DNA from: Oscillospiraceae bacterium
GTDB taxonomy: Bacteria > Bacillota > Clostridia > Oscillospirales > JAKOTC01
Length of the DNA stretch: 64,000 nt
Direction: 5' to 3'
NCBI GenBank assembly: GCA_035380125.1
Contig: DAOSWV010000002.1
Location: 73,270 to 137,269 of the forward strand
Shown here: in pieces, positions 16,462-41,180 of the stretch
Position numbering within the stretch: position 1 is the first letter of the stretch
Layout: every line of letters begins with the position of its first letter
Position numbers and translations under genes: made by a program
The notes under the pieces: model-generated
Databases searched by the model: none
Seen by the model: the letters and a program-made list of their open reading frames with translations, nothing else
Told to the model about the DNA's origin: nothing

Positions 16462-16780
16462 AAGCCAAACTTAATAATGGTTGTGAACCAAACCGCTGAA
16501 GCGGAGATAACGGTGATCATGATCCCACAGAGAGCCCGAGATGGTGGAATTCGGGCGGAAAACAAGTCATCAAATGGACCGCTGAGGGCGCAGGCGAAAA
16601 ACGAATCTGTCGATTTAAAGTAAATCTGACGATTTACTAAGTAGTTTGCGACGTGTGGGCATACGTCAGTTGCCGGGGATATGCTGGTATCCCGCAAAGC
16701 GCACGGCAATTGCCGTGAATCAAGGTGGCACCGCGAATGAGTATTCGTCCTTGACAGAATTTCTGTCAGGGATTTTTTGT
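16462..16780 (+). promoter_or_regulatory. T-box riboswitch leader, tryptophan (UGG) specifier
   Basis: AGAGAG box and distal GAGATGGTGGAATTC are present in Stem I. The specifier context is AAATGGA (TGG at 16575-16577). The T-box sequence AATCAAGGTGGCACCGCG lies at 16718-16735. Terminator TCCTTGACAGA-attt-CTGTCAGGGA plus TTTTTT lies at 16748-16778. The leader sits directly upstream of trpE. Confidence 0.85.
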
Positions 16781-35433: not shown

Positions 35434-35511
35434 GACCACCCCGCCCTGCGGGCACCCCAAGGCGTCAAAGCCGCCCTATGGGCGGCATAACGACCCATGC
35501 AGAGGGGAATT
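35434..35511 (-). repeat. Repeat unit with ends AATTCCCCTCT ... GGGGTGGTC (second copy at 44313-44371 on +)
   Basis: The reverse complement starts AATTCCCCTCT and ends GGGGTGGTC, as the 44313 copy does. The internal hairpins differ. Confidence 0.55.
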
Positions 35512-35566
35512 AAGTGAAGAGTTAAAAAGGAATGTGCCATGCGGCGGGGAAACAGGGTGTTCAGTC

Positions 35567-35681
35567 GTCATTGCGAGGGGCGTTGCCCCGCGGCAATCCA
35601 GACAAAGAGATAATCAGAACACTTTATTTCTGGATTGCTTCGTCGGCGCAGCGATTACGCTGTGCTTCTCCTCGCAAAGAC
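35567..35681. repeat. Inverted pair of CATTGCGAGG...GCAATCCAGA units
   Basis: Left arm 35567-35602 and right arm 35629-35681. GCAATCCAGA and TCTGGATTGC are perfectly complementary. TCATTGCGAGG and CCTCGCAAAGA are nearly so. Confidence 0.7.
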
Positions 35682-35720
35682 GGTATCCTTCTACAGAGAG
35701 AAACTTTTCGACTTTATTGA

Positions 35721-36419
35721 TTATCGGTTGATTATGTAATTGATCGCAGCCCCTGCGAGGGCAAGGCCGGCGGCGCCGACGACCCATCCGGCGGAGGCGG
35801 GCGGGTGCTTGCCTTTTGCACCGGGTAAAACGATTTCCTGTGGGATTTCGAGCGAATAGACCACCTTGAAATCGAGACCGCGTTTTCTGGCCTCGTGCCG
35901 CATGACGCGCGCCAACCCGTCGCCGCAGCCCGCCGTTTCGGCGATCATTCCGATGCGGAAAGCCGTCGGATCGAGCCGGTTGCCCGCGCCCATGGACGAG
36001 ATGAAACCGGTTTTGCGTTCGGCGGTCTCTTTGACCAGTGCTAGTTTGGTGGTCACGGTATCAATGGCGTCTATAACAAAATCGGGCCCTTCGTCAAAGA
36101 GGAGCCCGAGATTTTCCGGCATAAAAAATTCCTGAATCAGAATCAGCTTTGCGTCCGGGTTGATCGAGAGCAAACGGCGTTTTGCTGCTTCGGTTTTCGG
36201 CATCCCGACCGTCTGTTCCGTAGCTAAAATCTGGCGGTTTAGATTTGAGGGATCAACCGTGTCGCCGTCTGCTAAAATCAAAGTGCCGACCCCGCTGCGC
36301 AGCAGGGCTTCGGCTGCATACCCTCCGACGCCGCCCAAGCCCACAACCGCAATTTTGCTTTTTGCGAGCTTGTCCGCGTTTTCGGCGCCGATCAGCGCCT
36401 GTGTGCGTGAAAGATCCAT
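35721..36419 (-). CDS. tcdA: tRNA threonylcarbamoyladenosine dehydratase (ThiF/E1-like, TcdA family)
   Basis: The VVGLGGVGGYAAEALLRSGVG Rossmann motif and DPSNLNRQ are present. The start is set to MDLSRTQALIG (36419) rather than 36536. Confidence 0.75.
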   Translation of the reverse strand: MDLSRTQALIGAENADKLAKSKIAVVGLGGVGGYAAEALLRSGVGTLILADGDTVDPSNLNRQILATEQTVGMPKTEAAKRRLLSINPDAKLILIQEFFMPENLGLLFDEGPDFVIDAIDTVTTKLALVKETAERKTGFISSMGAGNRLDPTAFRIGMIAETAGCGDGLARVMRHEARKRGLDFKVVYSLEIPQEIVLPGAKGKHPPASAGWVVGAAGLALAGAAINYIINR

Positions 36420-36630
36420 TTTACCTCGAAAAATACGGCTCCCCGCCATGTCGTAGATGCGGATTTTTGATAACCTGCCTAATTTCTTAAACAGGAGGGA
36501 CGTCACCGGCCGGTTTTGTGCTTCCAACGTCCGCAAATGCGGGAGGCCTGCATTCCCGCCGGTCGAGGAGGCGTCCGATTACATGAAGTTGTAGGGTTAT
36601 AAAAACCGCAATTCGCATACATGGCAGGGA

Positions 36631-36974
36631 GATAACGAACTCGTGAACGAGTTCGTTTGGCAAGAATGTCTCTTACGCGACATTCTTGATGGTTTGATGA
36701 ATCCCGAAGGAATTCGTTTGGAAAGAATGCCTCTGACGATGCATTCTTTATGCTGCATGGATGGTTCGTTTGGCAAAAATATTTCTGATGAAATATTTTT
36801 GAGTGTTGCTTAGGGTTGGATGAGAACTCGGAGAATTCGTTTGGAACATGGATAATTCACTTGGCAAAAATGTCTCTTGCGCGATATTCTTGATGTCGAT
36901 TAGAGTTTGTGCGCTATTTAGGACTTGGTTAGAACTCGCGCGACAAGAATATCTCTTATACGATATTCCTGATG
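36631..36974. repeat. Array of five diverged hairpin repeats (consensus TTGGCAAGAATGTC-TCTTACGC-GACATTCTTGATG)
   Basis: Hairpins lie at 36661-36688, 36722-36749, 36774-36801, 36865-36892 and 36944-36971, with 9-12-bp stems. Arm sequences differ between copies but remain complementary. The conserved upstream segment is GAATTCGTTTGG. No ORF explains the array. Confidence 0.85.
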
Positions 36975-36980
36975 TAAAAT

Positions 36981-37277
36981 TTATTCTTCGTCTTCGGATT
37001 CGTCGTCTTCCGCAAAGGCGGCTTCGAAAGCGGTAGAGACCCGTTCGAATTCCGCATCATCTTCGATGATCTCGAAAATCTCTTCGCCGTCTTCTTCGAT
37101 GACTCGGACAATGTAGACGTCCTCGTCTTCGTGGTCACAGTTTTCGTCGGTGCAGACGGGCAGCAGCGCCGCATAGTGTTCGCCGTCGACGTCAAGTTCT
37201 CTGACGATTTCGAATTCGTATTCGTCGCCCTCCTCATCGGTGAGGGTGACGAAATCGTTGCCGTAATCTTCGCTCAT
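36981..37277 (-). CDS. DUF1292 family acidic protein
   Basis: 98 aa. LTDEEGDEYEFEIVRELDVDGEHYAALLP is the typical DUF1292 core. Confidence 0.75.
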   Translation of the reverse strand: MSEDYGNDFVTLTDEEGDEYEFEIVRELDVDGEHYAALLPVCTDENCDHEDEDVYIVRVIEEDGEEIFEIIEDDAEFERVSTAFEAAFAEDDESEDEE

Positions 37278-37291
37278 GGTGATGCCTCCAT

Positions 37292-38659
37292 TTATTCGGT
37301 GATTTTGATAACGGTGATAGAGCCCGGACGCAGATAGAGAACTTCGGGAAGCGGACCGAGTACACCGGTTTGCGCATGATCGTTATTGTTGTCGGTGACG
37401 AAAAAACGTGCTTCGTATTTTTCCGGCAGTCCCGCAGTTTCGAATTTGTATTCGCGCGCGACGCCTTCGTAGTTGGCGATTAAGATGACTTTTTCGGCGT
37501 TGGATTTTGCCGCCAGCACCAGAACTCCGTCGGCACCGCCGGTGCATTCGATTTGATTCATACCGGAGACTTCATGAAAAGCCATCAGGGCATAATACGG
37601 TTTTTGGGGAACGCCGTGCGGATCAAAACAGGTATCCCAGCCACCGCCGCCGTCGGTTCGATAGAAGTTGGCGATCTGCACTGGCAGGTTTTGAAAAGTG
37701 ATCATTGCGCCGAGGATATAACTTGCCGCCCGGGCGCTGCGCATCTCTTCAAAAAGGGCTGCGCGGAAATATTCACCATTCGGATCACCGAGTTTCGGCC
37801 AGATGTCCTCGAATTCCCAGAAATAATTATATTCGGTACACAGCAGTTCGATGTCGGAAAAACCGTTGTTTTCGAGGCTTTGCGTGATATAGTGTACGCG
37901 GTCGCGCAGCTTTTTGAAACTGTCGCCGTAGGCATGGAACGAGAAAAAATCAAATGCATGGGGCGCCTTTTGAAGCGCCGTTAAAAACCCTTCGAAAAAG
38001 ATTCTTCGGGACGGTTCGTCGACCGCACAGGAGGCGTATCCGCCGAACTTTAGTTCGGGATAACGATTTTTAAGGACGGATGATGCGACGCAGTAGAATT
38101 CGTAAAACTGTTCGGGTGTGCCGCTCCACTGGCCGGCCATCGCCATGGCGGATCTTCCGAGATCGGCGTCGGGTTCGTTCCAGATCTCCCAATACCGGAT
38201 GTCATAGGTGAAACCGTCGGCCCAGCCGTGGTTATAGTGTTCGATAATCCGGCAGCAAATACGCGCCCATTTTTCAAAATCTTTCGGCGGTTGATTGTGA
38301 AAACGGAACGGGCCGCCCTCCATGCTGTTCCCGAGCCGGTAGACGATGTCCATGCCCGTGTCCTTGATTGATTTGATATAGTAATCGGTCGGGGCAAAGA
38401 AATAGTTTTTCGGATCGTTTTCGTCGGCGTCAAAATTCGGGAAGATGGCGGGGACGTCAACGCAGGCCAGATGGTGGATGAAACTGTCATGCAGGCGGGT
38501 ATATGAGGGCCGAACTTTTTTAAAATATTTGGCCGTGCGTTCCGTCGGTGCGTTGCAGGTGCCGTTGACCGGCTTGATCGGCCCGATGATCTTGTTGAAG
38601 TCAATGACAAAATCGGGTTCTTTGGGACGATATTGATATTGGTTTAATAAGATTTCCAT
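37292..38659 (-). CDS. Clan GH-A glycoside hydrolase (GH39-like), cytoplasmic
   Basis: 455 aa. YWEIWNEPD is the acid/base Glu context and LLCTEYN is the nucleophile Glu context. Confidence 0.6.
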   Translation of the reverse strand: MEILLNQYQYRPKEPDFVIDFNKIIGPIKPVNGTCNAPTERTAKYFKKVRPSYTRLHDSFIHHLACVDVPAIFPNFDADENDPKNYFFAPTDYYIKSIKDTGMDIVYRLGNSMEGGPFRFHNQPPKDFEKWARICCRIIEHYNHGWADGFTYDIRYWEIWNEPDADLGRSAMAMAGQWSGTPEQFYEFYCVASSVLKNRYPELKFGGYASCAVDEPSRRIFFEGFLTALQKAPHAFDFFSFHAYGDSFKKLRDRVHYITQSLENNGFSDIELLCTEYNYFWEFEDIWPKLGDPNGEYFRAALFEEMRSARAASYILGAMITFQNLPVQIANFYRTDGGGGWDTCFDPHGVPQKPYYALMAFHEVSGMNQIECTGGADGVLVLAAKSNAEKVILIANYEGVAREYKFETAGLPEKYEARFFVTDNNNDHAQTGVLGPLPEVLYLRPGSITVIKITE

Positions 38660-39520: not shown

Positions 39521-41161
39521 CTAAGCGCCGAGAATGCGGTTGAGCTGCTCGCGCATGGTCAAAATAAATTCGTCGGTGCGAGGGTACTGCTCGAAAGTCA
39601 GTGTGCCGTCGGGATCAATTAGTTTCATTACCGTTTCTTTTCCGACTTTGGCTGCAGTGGCTTCGAGTGCACGCAGGTCGCACAGGGCTTCGTAAAAATG
39701 CAGGTAGTGCAGGGACAGAACCGGGCCGTCTTTTCCGGGATAGACCGAGAACGCGTCGCCCGCCGGGAAGATGCTGTCGCCGTCGGTATCGCGCCACGGG
39801 TCGAGCGGATGAATTGACAGGTGGGTGTTCCAGAAGTTATACCCCCACTGCAAAAATCCCGCGATGTCGTATTTGAACAACTGGCTTGCGATCACTCGGG
39901 TGCGCCGTCCGGGCATCGCAAGGAATCGGTTGCTGACTTTTTCGCCCTGACCGCAGCAGTAGTATACCCACAGATCGGGGACTTGCGCCGAGATGAATGC
40001 CTGGGCGTGATTGGTCGCGGCCACCGGTCTTTTCAGCAATCCCTCTTTATAATAATCCAAATTGCTGAGCGCGTCAATGATTTTTTCGGCCGGAACATAT
40101 TCCCTGATCAGTGCCGCACCGTCTTTAAAATTTTTAATCGAGGTCTCGTTGGGTTCGTCGGAGACGTGGAAAACGCAGTTTTCCCAGTTGCCGGAGTCCT
40201 TTAAATAGGCGGTCAAAGCTGCTAAAAACTGATGCAAAAACGATTTGTATTCGGGACCGTGCGCATCGGTTTCCCAACCGAAGATGCGGCGCGGTTTCCC
40301 GTCGGTTTGTGCGATAATTTTCGGCGCGCTTTTGGCGCCCCACTGGGTGAACAGATGGGAGATTTCGATATACTCCATGCCGGCACGCTTGGCGGTCTCA
40401 ATCCAGCGGGTGAGCAGCGTGAAATCAAATTCGTATTTACCGTCAGACAGTTTGACTCCGACCAGTTGAACGGTCGGGCGCTCGGTGCCGATACGGGTAT
40501 CGAGGGGAGGCGTGAAAACCGGCGTCAGAATCATATTCTGCCCGTGATCGGCGGCGGTTTTCATGTATTTTTCAATCAGCTTCCAATGCTTTTCGGAAAA
40601 GACGGGAACATCATAATACTGTGCGATGCAGTCGGAATGGAACCACTGGGTGTTGATCAGTTTTTGCTTGGGCAATTCAAAAGAAATTACATCAAGATCG
40701 AACTGAATGACGGTCAGTTCGCCGTGTTCGCTGTCGCCGAATGCAAACATCAGCTTGTGCGTACCGGGTTCGGGGCGAAATTTTGTTAGGTCAACGCTGA
40801 CCAGCAGCGAGCGCCACTCCTGATTGACCGCTGCGAGTTCACCGCCTTTTTCAAACGGGATCAATGCGTCGGGTAAAAGTCCCGGTGAACGGGTGATATA
40901 GTCGCCGTCGTCGACATTGGGATAGCAGGGAAGTTTGACGGGAACGAGCGCCACCTGATACAGCGTCACCGCTTCCGCGAGATCTCCTGCGACACCGACG
41001 TTATAATAGCCGCGCATCTCGGTATAGTTTTGTAGCGTATAGGCGATTTGGAAGGAGAATTTTTCTCCGTAACAAGCCGAAAATCGCTCAAAGCCGCCTT
41101 TGGGTTCGGCGTTGGGCAGGATTTTTTCAAGCGATGAGCAGGTTTTCAATAAGATCGGCAT
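39521..41161 (-). CDS. DUF4091/GH123-like putative glycoside hydrolase
   Basis: ~546 aa, cytoplasmic. Its resemblance to DUF4091 proteins is from memory and unverified. The start is set to the second ATG (41161, GAAAGG RBS) because the first ATG (41179) abuts a REP unit. Confidence 0.4.
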   Translation of the reverse strand: MPILLKTCSSLEKILPNAEPKGGFERFSACYGEKFSFQIAYTLQNYTEMRGYYNVGVAGDLAEAVTLYQVALVPVKLPCYPNVDDGDYITRSPGLLPDALIPFEKGGELAAVNQEWRSLLVSVDLTKFRPEPGTHKLMFAFGDSEHGELTVIQFDLDVISFELPKQKLINTQWFHSDCIAQYYDVPVFSEKHWKLIEKYMKTAADHGQNMILTPVFTPPLDTRIGTERPTVQLVGVKLSDGKYEFDFTLLTRWIETAKRAGMEYIEISHLFTQWGAKSAPKIIAQTDGKPRRIFGWETDAHGPEYKSFLHQFLAALTAYLKDSGNWENCVFHVSDEPNETSIKNFKDGAALIREYVPAEKIIDALSNLDYYKEGLLKRPVAATNHAQAFISAQVPDLWVYYCCGQGEKVSNRFLAMPGRRTRVIASQLFKYDIAGFLQWGYNFWNTHLSIHPLDPWRDTDGDSIFPAGDAFSVYPGKDGPVLSLHYLHFYEALCDLRALEATAAKVGKETVMKLIDPDGTLTFEQYPRTDEFILTMREQLNRILGA

Positions 41162-41180
41162 GGTGATGACCTTTCTCATT

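Follow-up and report, generated by a model that had tools for sequence, protein, structure and literature searches.

Locus organization and the hairpin units

The neighborhood of the hairpin array in the window (the whole 64-kb stretch of DNA that was analyzed) comprised genes for GH123, a prolyl isomerase, GH39, DUF1292, a ThiF-family protein and a 701-aa protein. Five hairpin repeats made up the 347-nt spacer between the stop codon of the DUF1292 gene, which is its upstream boundary, and the 5′ end of a 6S RNA gene (36634-36980, minus strand). The features of the locus were as follows:

36981..37277, minus strand: DUF1292 gene, 98 aa (ORF list; PF06949 assigned to an identical protein)
36936..36974 (core 36944-36971), minus strand: hairpin unit 5, farthest from 6S (covariance model, 51.1 bits)
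36857..36895 (core 36865-36892), minus strand: hairpin unit 4 (covariance model, 56.2 bits)
36824..36844, minus strand: orphan GAAYUC mini-hairpin with CCAAAC flank (read from the sequence; direct-repeat family D2)
36766..36804 (core 36774-36801), minus strand: hairpin unit 3 (covariance model, 55.6 bits; inverted repeat I9)
36714..36752 (core 36722-36749), minus strand: hairpin unit 2 (covariance model, 56.0 bits)
36699..36715, minus strand: GAAYUC mini-hairpin after unit 2, GAAUUCC-UUC-GGGAUUC (read from the sequence; forms in MFE folds)
36653..36691 (core 36661-36688), minus strand: hairpin unit 1, nearest 6S (covariance model, 63.6 bits)
36634..36657, minus strand: terminal hairpin, AACGAACUCG-UUCA-CGAGUUCGUU (inverted repeat I12; folds in all lineages)
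36436..36633, minus strand: 6S RNA gene, ssrS (RF00013, 47.9 bits against a gathering score of 46.4)
35721..36419, minus strand: tcdA-like ThiF-family gene (PF00899), immediately downstream of 6S

The initial annotation had described a gene-free gap and had treated the hairpins as an intergenic element between DUF1292 and tcdA. This annotation was corrected by the presence of ssrS in the gap. The array ends at the 6S gene and is therefore the DUF1292-to-6S spacer rather than the DUF1292-tcdA spacer, and the question becomes that of the 5′ leader of a 6S precursor. The rod-like fold of the 6S RNA (closing stem, central bubble and apical stem) comprised 61 consensus pairs, 17 of them compensatory, in an alignment of 12 lineages. 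Ten loci in the relatives matched RF00013 at or above the gathering score (47–52 bits); L057/L058 scored 39.2 bits, which is below it, and L059 gave no RF00013 match. The Rfam match in the window ended at 36633, short of the array. On the other side of 6S, the tcdA-like gene started with an ATG at 36419, and its RBS (GAGG) lay just past the U-run at the 6S 3′ end. The GC content of the array was 40%, compared with ~53% in the surroundings. The array was identical in an independent assembly (L001), which ruled out an assembly artefact. The literature yielded no paper linking 6S RNA with DUF1292 and no description of DUF1292 function.

The five hairpins of the initial annotation were borne out in position and sequence, far beyond chance. 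Their irregular spacing (61, 52, 91, and 79 nt) was that of five direct copies of a 47-nt unit (family D1). The copies were 64–81% identical to the reference copy, and the stretches between them also contained repeated motifs; Tandem Repeats Finder returned no repeats on the window array because the copies were too diverged. The module consisted of a 12-bp A/U-rich stem and a tetraloop, often of the GNRA type on the 6S-sense strand, flanked by CAU on the 5′ side and by CCAA and then a GAAYUC mini-hairpin on the 3′ side. The palindromic core was 28 nt long with a stem of 10–12 bp. The segment GAATTCGTTTGG, already recognized as a conserved flank, corresponded to direct-repeat family D2, and the second perfect hairpin reported in unit 1 was recovered as the terminal hairpin listed above.

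The units differed in the quality of their stems. Unit 1 had a perfect 10-bp stem followed by G.A, a C-G pair and a GUAA tetraloop, and its 28-nt core was identical in L016 and L002/L020. The ortholog of unit 2 in L049 carried a single C-to-U change, so that a G-C pair becomes G.U when read on the 6S-sense strand. Unit 3 was of the B type, with a perfect 12-bp A/U stem and an AUCA loop. Unit 4 contained one G.U, one A.C mismatch and a GCAA tetraloop, and unit 5 had an imperfect stem with a G.U on the 6S-sense strand and an AUAA loop. The orphan mini-hairpin (GAAUUC-UCC-GAGUUC), which occurred without a main hairpin, also had a U.G wobble on the 6S-sense strand.

Locus specificity and structural constraint

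A covariance model of the hairpin module is now provided. Run over the 64-kb window with filters off, it returned the five units (51–64 bits), and the next best match had 13 bits (E = 0.35). An exact-pattern search allowing 3 mismatches (0.00 chance matches expected) and a fuzzy search allowing up to 8 mismatches in 28 also found no other copy in the window, in agreement with what had first been noticed there. The model found no module elsewhere in the flanks of the relatives. No family member was present in 185,579 species genomes, in which only two chance palindromes were hit (Gemella and Yanofskybacteria). The metagenome scan gave 38 loci, 34 of which were unrelated AT-rich palindromes or terminators and four the DUF1292-6S spacer; the viral scan gave one chance match, on the same contig as L030. 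An abundant genome-wide REP family, raised earlier as an alternative, was thus not seen in any scan that was run. The short imperfect palindrome would fit a REP/BIME family, but the dispersed copies of such a family were not found in the window, in the flanks of the relatives, in metagenomes or in the species genomes.

Several other classes were considered and rejected. A CRISPR array was not consistent with the irregular spacing (52–91 nt), the diverged repeats and the lack of cas genes among the neighbors. Intrinsic terminators had been dismissed at the outset for want of a U-tract, and this held: the A/U-rich stems were followed by CCAA on the minus strand or GATG on the plus strand, and no terminator-like site was found on either strand of 36634-36980. 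A search of 35500-38000 against Rfam with E up to 10 recovered 6S as the only known RNA family; besides it, two microRNAs were matched by chance (E = 0.6 and 6.1), and neither match lay in the array. The segment CCATGTAAAGCGAATT resembles the 6S 5′ end, but local alignments of the spacer with 6S in four lineages scored within the range of shuffled sequences, and an origin of the array from a duplicated 6S 5′ end was rejected. A coding repeat was also rejected: the unit spacings were all 1 mod 3 and the spacer length varied from 74 to 400 nt between lineages, with short plus-strand ORFs present.

The pairing of the main hairpin is maintained via compensatory changes. Among 17 distinct units from eight lineages, 93.6% of cells were paired and five of the 12 pairs changed on both sides, compared with 35–55% paired in slid controls, and the compensatory arm changes first described from the five units of the window were thereby confirmed. 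Conservation across lineages reached 19–20/20 in the hairpins and 12–16/20 in the linkers; for comparison, identity at the 4-fold degenerate sites of DUF1292 was ~0.55–0.8. The proposal of selection on, or templated maintenance of, hairpin structure made in the initial annotation was strengthened by these changes and by the peaks of conservation on the hairpins, though that annotation had missed the adjoining 6S gene.

All 22 module copies shared the orientation of 6S, and their sense matches scored 38–64 bits against 11–27 bits for the antisense. The minus-strand loops were GUCA, GCAA, GUAA, AUCA, AUAA, ACAA, and GUCG, and seven of the 17 distinct units had GNRA tetraloops, which were confined to the 6S-sense strand. 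For the array alone, the fold z-scores were -6.1 (minus strand) and -3.6 (plus strand), and leader plus 6S folded into independent hairpins beside the 6S rod (z = -6.6). Wobble pairs in the main hairpins pointed to neither strand: six G.U were valid only on the 6S-sense strand, and four A.C would become G.U on the opposite one.

The terminal hairpin was the constant element of the spacer. It was perfectly paired over 9–11 bp in all eight lineages of the clade and ended 1–2 nt ahead of the 6S closing stem (2 nt in the window). Five stem haplotypes were found in these lineages, with four compensatory changes and no mismatch. A stem that changes its sequence and keeps its pairing is characteristic of a strand that folds rather than of a site recognized by a protein or sigma factor.

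Variation among lineages and possible roles

Conservation in close relatives had been proposed as a test of the array, and the array was kept in related lineages. Eight related uncultured Oscillospiraceae lineages shared the order DUF1292, spacer and 6S, with 0–6 module copies. One of them, L053, had no main hairpin, which indicated that the repeated module is dispensable; a copy number that varies freely would also be expected if the array as such were under little or no selection. Tandem duplications were detected in L002 (period 133, 2.6 copies) and L055 (period 72, 2.0 copies), and L020 had one unit fewer than its near-identical contig L002. The array grows by local tandem duplication, independently in two lineages. 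Truncated copies were found in L002, L016, and L055.

In five outgroup lineages, 6S started 2–5 nt past the DUF1292 stop codon (35 nt in one), and a TTGACA-17-TAnnAT promoter matching at 11 of 12 positions was located ~58 nt upstream of the DUF1292 start. This arrangement suggested that 6S is made from the DUF1292 transcript, so that the outgroup 6S would be the 3′ part of that transcript and would have to be cut out of it. In the Oscillospiraceae considered here, 6S can thus apparently form the 3′ part of the mRNA of a small protein. The clade that carries the spacer had no such strong DUF1292 promoter; its loss was attributed to the GH39 gene, which is now directly upstream. In this one clade, a putative repeat-built hairpin leader was inserted exactly at the DUF1292-6S junction, where it is structurally constrained and has expanded independently.

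Here, we tentatively propose that the array acts as a structured RNA leader, specific to this clade and placed between DUF1292 and 6S, with a role in processing, stability or insulation, an explanation to which we give a little less than an even chance. The spacer would be co-transcribed from the minus strand with DUF1292 and 6S and would fold into independent hairpins beside the 6S rod. It might hold the terminating ribosome off the 6S closing stem. After endonucleolytic separation, the hairpins may stop 5′-to-3′ trimming of the RNase J type into 6S, and may also stop 3′-to-5′ decay into the DUF1292 mRNA; such a nuclease barrier is suggested by analogy with RNA decay in Firmicutes. The joint effect would be that the 5′ end of 6S is set and protected. 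New modules arise by tandem duplication in place, and the distal ones decay. Among the roles listed in the initial annotation, a processing or stability module of the transcript comes closest to this explanation, and its suggestion of a decaying local repeat family agrees with the imperfect distal units of the window and with the truncation of copies in relatives. If the leader controls 6S excision or stability, the locus would offer a natural system for the separation of a non-coding RNA from a translated mRNA in Firmicutes, and a model for cis-elements that arise by local duplication.

The strongest competitor, which we regard as unlikely yet serious, is that the array is a local palindromic repeat without function, which arose when one hairpin module beside 6S was multiplied through replication slippage or unequal recombination; at most the terminal hairpin would be functional. 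The complementarity would then be kept by intrastrand templated correction of quasi-palindromes rather than by selection. A copy number of 0–6 that differs even between near-identical contigs, the recent tandem duplications, the imperfect distal and truncated copies and the lineage without any main hairpin would all be expected of such a repeat. However, the 28-nt core and loop of unit 1 were identical in three lineages whose 4-fold sites were only ~70–80% identical, and units 2 and 3 had near-identical orthologs in other lineages. Conservation was also confined to the hairpins and dropped in the linkers, and the elements persisted at a single position in eight lineages.

The loss of the DUF1292 promoter leads to a further explanation, namely that the spacer is regulatory DNA holding a new 6S promoter, with palindromes that bind a protein or bear -10 and -35 elements. 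All outgroups have the 11/12 promoter upstream of DUF1292 that the clade lacks, and the array is AT-rich. Candidate sites had to combine -35 and -10 hexamers 16–18 nt apart and to precede 6S on its own strand. Weak sense-strand matches (8–9/12) were found in L002, L020, L051, and L055, in which the 5′ arm of the hairpin (AAGAAT or AAAAAT) would serve as the -10, with TTACCA or TTCACA in the role of the -35. These were not conserved in position, and no sense-strand site reached 8/12 in the spacers of the window, L026, L049, and L053; in the window, no sigma-70-type promoter site for 6S was present on the minus strand of 35600-37400. The sole universally conserved element, the terminal hairpin, varies in sequence and keeps its pairing, and promoter function needs no complementarity between arms. 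We consider a new promoter improbable.

The probability is similarly low that the modules represent an undescribed class of functional RNA element that travels with 6S, is recognized by a specific factor and tunes output through copy number. The element would be the 12-bp GNRA-capped hairpin with its conserved CAU and CCAA flanks. The factor might be RNase P or another nuclease, with the hairpins as "punctuation," or an RNA-binding protein that the array titrates; copy number might tune the release of 6S or another regulatory output of this transcript.

A reading in which the modules act in trans or as recognition RNA was judged still more doubtful. They would serve as a protein sponge co-expressed with 6S, or as RNase P "punctuation" resembling a tRNA minihelix that releases 6S. 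The AGA at the 3′ side of the loop was invariant, the 5′ CAU was present in 11 of 17 units and the 3′ CCAA in 12 of 17, and the GNRA tetraloops, a 12-bp stem equal in length to an acceptor-plus-T-arm minihelix and the independent expansion in two lineages point the same way. Against these stand the lack of CCA in five of the 17 units and its non-canonical register after the last pair. ARAGORN found no tRNA or tmRNA and nothing tRNA-like, and tRNA-like genes were rejected. The loops contained neither the GGA of CsrB/RsmZ-type sponges nor any other known protein-binding motif, and no Rfam family matched. No candidate partner gene co-occurred with the array in the loci examined.

A role of the units on the plus strand, whether as weak promoters or as a structured antisense RNA that runs into DUF1292, is very improbable: each TTGGCA plus hairpin unit scored as sigma-70-like (9/12, one with an extended -10 TG), this pattern recurred in L049 and the plus strand folded below shuffles (z = -3.6), but promoter function leaves the arm complementarity unexplained, the -10-like hexamers are a by-product of an AT-rich palindrome, the plus-strand loops UUAC, UUGC, and UGAC are not stable tetraloop classes while the minus-strand loops include GNRA, and the covariance model separates the orientations clearly, with all copies in that of 6S.

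Comparison with known systems

6S RNA globally regulates RNA polymerase, and most descriptions give it a promoter of its own and a leader that is short and unstructured. Like the leaders of 6S precursors, the spacer lies directly 5′ of the closing stem of mature 6S and would either be cut off a longer precursor or stay on it. In Bacillus subtilis, an 11-nt leader is removed from pre-6S-1 by RNase J1, and the 5′-monophosphate left by its removal promotes 6S-1 decay (PMC10578484). In Escherichia coli, 6S precursors arise from two promoters and are matured by RNase E/G (PMC10578484). The spacer differs from these known leaders in its length (74–400 nt compared with ~10 nt), in its conserved hairpin modules with a copy number that differs between close relatives, and in its position after a protein-coding gene instead of a promoter. 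In the literature searched, no 6S leader built of repeats was described.

Two other systems share the repeated hairpins. REP/BIME elements of enterobacteria consist of short imperfect palindromes that lie, at times in clusters, in transcribed spacers between genes; as RNA, their hairpins can block exonucleases and stabilize the upstream mRNA. REPs are scattered in hundreds of copies, their orientation alternates within BIMEs, and RAYT transposases are associated with them. The modules resemble them as short imperfect palindromes in an intergenic spacer; unlike them, they were found at one locus only and always in one orientation. CsrB/RsmZ RNAs carry repeated similar hairpins with conserved loop nucleotides and a copy number that varies between species. 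These traits recur here, but the GGA loop motif does not, and the hairpins belong to a putative leader, not to an independent sRNA gene that has a promoter and terminator of its own. As to a tRNA-like minihelix, the 12-bp stem was seen, and CCAA followed it in 12 of 17 distinct units, in a non-canonical register.

Enterobacterial 3′UTR-derived small RNAs are cut from mRNAs by RNase E. The outgroup 6S is comparable in that it starts within a few nucleotides of the stop codon and shares the promoter of the upstream gene; the non-coding RNA would therefore be the 3′ part of an mRNA. It differs in that the RNA is the housekeeping 6S; the hairpin spacer is a further layer, specific to the clade. 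In Firmicutes, the ermC and aprE leaders have 5′-terminal stem-loops that impede 5′-end-dependent decay. The proposed hairpin leader is similar to these stabilizers, with a stable hairpin that lies immediately 5′ of the RNA and ends 1–2 nt from the 6S closing stem. However, the ermC and aprE hairpins sit at the 5′ end of the primary transcript, whereas the terminal hairpin described here is preceded by further repeated hairpins.

The DUF1292–6S RNA locus and its relatives

The five hairpins reported by the initial annotation for 36631-36974 agreed exactly with the sequence, and its separate perfect hairpin at 36634-36657 was recovered by a repeat search. The gap, described there as gene-free, contains a 6S RNA gene (Rfam RF00013), whose score in the Rfam search was borderline (47.9 bits; gathering score, 46.4). 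The locus is organized as follows, in minus-strand order:

37277-36981, minus strand: DUF1292 gene, first in order
36980-36634, minus-strand order: hairpin array between DUF1292 and 6S, a 347-nt spacer from stop codon to 6S 5′ end
36436-36633, minus strand: 6S RNA gene, third in order
ATG at 36419, minus strand: tcdA-like gene, after 6S

Judged from sequence comparison, the array is real, conserved and confined to this locus; in one Oscillospiraceae clade it would form a leader of hairpin modules on the 6S RNA precursor, with a putative function. RF00013 reached the gathering score in ten related loci; L057/L058 scored 39.2 bits, under that threshold, and L059 gave no RF00013 match in the Rfam search. 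The 6S alignment of 12 lineages formed the expected rod of 61 pairs, 17 of which showed changes on both sides that kept the pairing. A T-box leader (RF00230; 97.9 bits, gathering score 93) was found elsewhere in the window at 16487-16755 (+).

The related loci (L numbers) were obtained by tcdA-like and DUF1292 protein searches, contig look-ups and one DNA-pattern metagenome scan. The spacer was carried by a clade of eight lineages of uncultured Oscillospiraceae, all with the order DUF1292, spacer and 6S. Identities within this clade were 74-90% for DUF1292, 86-94% for 6S and about 0.55-0.8 at 4-fold sites.

Spacer length (stop codon to 6S closing stem) and copies of the main hairpin in the clade; L002 and L020 are two variants of a single lineage
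Locus; spacer; main hairpin copies
L053; 74 nt; 0
L026; 163 nt; 2
L051; 173 nt; 2
L016; 182 nt; 1, plus decayed remnants
L049; 226 nt; 3
L020; 269 nt; 3, plus one truncated
L055; 282 nt; 2, plus one truncated
Window; 349 nt; 5
L002; about 400 nt; 5, plus one truncated

Downstream of 6S, the tcdA-like gene came next in the window, in L002/L003 and in the outgroups only. A homolog of the window's 701-aa protein was the next gene in six clade lineages, which also had a longer U-run after the 6S closing stem (L016, reverse strand, about 1690-1784; L026 1080-1160; L049 3630-3720; L051 3690-3770; L053 1995-2070; L055 5790-6270). The L055 region was an insert of about 480 nt rich in repeats, among them a direct repeat of about 100 nt present twice (ggaaat..ggtaggcggggaac..ccgtaggggcggccctatgtggccgcccgcgcgtatgg).

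Anatomy, specificity and growth of the hairpins

Read on the 6S-sense strand, the module consensus comprises CAU, CAAGAAUAUC(U/G)C, a tetraloop, G(A)GAUAUUCUUG and CCAA(A/G)CGAAYUC, a 3′ flank that also supplies the 5′ arm of another hairpin, the smaller GAAYUC one. The main stem has up to 12 pairs, position 11 being G.A in some types. In the 17 distinct units compared, 93.6% of cells were paired and double changes occurred at 5 of the 12 pairs, compared with 35-55% pairing in a control in which the partner was slid by 1-3 columns. The CAU and CCAA flanks were present in 11 and 12 of the 17 units, respectively.

The repeat search recovered five direct copies of a 47-nt unit (36645-36691, 36706-36752, 36758-36804, 36849-36895 and 36928-36974), which were spaced by 61, 52, 91 and 79 nt and were 64-100% identical to the reference copy. 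This was well beyond chance expectation (0.00 for the unit-1 core with 3 mismatches after shuffling), and the independent assembly L001 had the same array sequence. A fuzzy search allowing 8/28 mismatches found no further copy across the window. The covariance model R1, which was made from 11 distinct units and run with filters off, scored the five copies at 51-64 bits in the 64-kb window (next match 13 bits, E = 0.35), and it found none outside the spacer in the window or the relatives' flanks. A specific IUPAC pattern detected no family member in one genome per species of 185,579 species (the source genome not among them), its two matches being chance palindromes. From 241 million metagenome records, a looser pattern retrieved 38 loci, of which four were true family members (L016, L020, L026 and L038), all with their copies in this DUF1292–6S spacer although two contigs span 61 and 98 kb; the single match of the viral scan was by chance. 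Within the limits of these searches, the module is no REP-like family of dispersed copies.

In a sliding 20-nt comparison of the window spacer with other lineages, the peaks (19-20/20) fell on units 1-4, counted from 6S, while the linkers reached 12-16/20 and the most distal unit 5 at most 17/20. The 28-nt core of unit 1, loop included, was identical in the window, L016 and L002/L020, and the unit 2 ortholog in L049 had one C-to-U difference, which gives a G.U pair on the 6S strand. Tandem duplication enlarged the arrays: a 133-nt period recurs in L002 in 2.6 copies with 97% identity, L020 has one unit fewer, and L055 has an independent 72-nt duplication. The window array, with three perfect proximal and two imperfect distal copies, is old enough that Tandem Repeats Finder reported nothing.

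All clade members, even L053 without any main hairpin, had a terminal hairpin with a perfect stem of 9-11 bp that ended 1-2 nt short of the 6S closing stem; the latter begins CUCCCUGCC. Its stem occurred in five forms:

Form 1: AACGAACUCG / CGAGUUCGUU
Form 2: AACAAACUCG / CGAGUUUGUU
Form 3: AACAAACUCG / CGAGUUUGUU with one extra G-C pair
Form 4: A(A)GCGAAUUC / GAAUUCGC(U)U
Form 5: AGAGAAUUCA / UGAAUUCUCU

These forms included four compensatory double substitutions and no mismatch. Because the sequence varies while the pairing stays, this speaks for a folded strand and against a recognition site for a protein or sigma factor. It is somewhat unlikely that the remainder of the spacer is a local repeat without function and that the terminal hairpin alone is functional; the fall of copy number to zero in L053 favours this reading, and the unit sequence kept across lineages speaks against it.

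Transcription context

The five outgroups (L004, L007, L008, L057 and L059) had DUF1292 followed by 6S without the spacer, 6S starting 2-5 nt past the stop codon (35 nt in L008), at these junctions:

L004: 1193-1196
L007: 2744-2749
L057: 1760-1765
L059: about 1461-1475
L008: 1032-1067

All five carried TTGACA-17-TAnnAT (11/12 positions) some 58 nt ahead of the DUF1292 start codon, and their stop codon-to-6S interval was too short for a promoter. On this sequence evidence, the outgroup 6S must be transcribed with DUF1292 and then released by processing, and thus appears to be a 3′UTR-derived RNA of the DUF1292 mRNA.

In the clade, a GH39 gene lay directly upstream of DUF1292, between it and prolyl isomerase (window 37292-38659 (-); L049 1497-2864; L051 1618-2985; L055 3617-4984), and the strong outgroup-type promoter upstream of DUF1292 was absent. 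The spacer might be new promoter or regulatory DNA for 6S, which we consider distinctly unlikely. Weak 8-9/12 sites with a hairpin arm as the -10 occurred only in L002, L020, L051 and L055, and the 6S strand of the window spacer had no sigma-70-like site even at 8/12. A promoter-like TTGACG-17-TATTAT (10/12) lay at about 40049-40077 (-) within the GH123 ORF (39521-41179). This site was kept in the window and in L049, L050, L051 and L055, perhaps as an internal promoter driving the genes downstream, or simply through coding-sequence conservation.

A possible leader function and known systems

We infer that the spacer is a structured cis leader transcribed on the minus strand together with DUF1292 and 6S and serving as a nuclease barrier, a tentative reading that we place slightly short of an even chance. 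The comparisons established the anatomy, covariation, conservation, locus specificity and mode of growth of the array; its transcription, strand and barrier role are inferred. The terminal hairpin and preceding modules would keep the 6S closing stem clear of the terminating ribosome; once an endonuclease had cut, the hairpins would block 5′-to-3′ trimming into 6S and 3′-to-5′ decay into the DUF1292 mRNA. In the fold of leader plus 6S (z = -6.6), the leader hairpins stood apart from one another, next to a 6S rod that stayed intact. This mechanism draws by analogy on B. subtilis, where RNase J1 removes the 11-nt unstructured pre-6S-1 leader and leaves a 5′-monophosphate that promotes 6S-1 decay (PMC10578484).

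It is very unlikely that the module serves for specific recognition or as a sponge, a reading that includes a tRNA minihelix recognised by RNase P. The 17 units carried the loops GUCA (6), GCAA (4), GUAA (3) and AUCA, AUAA, ACAA and GUCG (1 each). A plus-strand function seems scarcely credible. All 22 covariance-model matches had the 6S orientation, opposite-strand matches (11-27 bits) being weak palindrome echoes only; GNRA tetraloops (7/17 units) appeared only on the 6S strand, and the fold of the array by itself had z = -6.1 for the minus strand and -3.6 for the plus strand. Wobble pairs leave the strand undecided: six G.U pairs were valid only on the 6S strand, and four A.C would become G.U on the opposite one. 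On the opposite strand, each TTGGCA-plus-hairpin unit scored as a weak sigma-70-like promoter (9/12, one with a TG extension; window 36770-36799 and 36861-36890 (+), L049 3404-3375 (-)), a pattern that the AT-rich palindrome probably produces incidentally.

The array matched no Rfam family, and it lacks the defining features of a CRISPR array, a terminator, a consensus promoter and a Csr-type sponge. In the literature searched, neither a 6S leader built of repeats nor a DUF1292–6S link was described. If the structured leader reading holds, the nearest likenesses in mode of working would be REP-type intercistronic stabiliser hairpins, whose defining genome-wide dispersal the module does not share in the sequences searched, together with the 5′ stabiliser stem-loops of Firmicutes.
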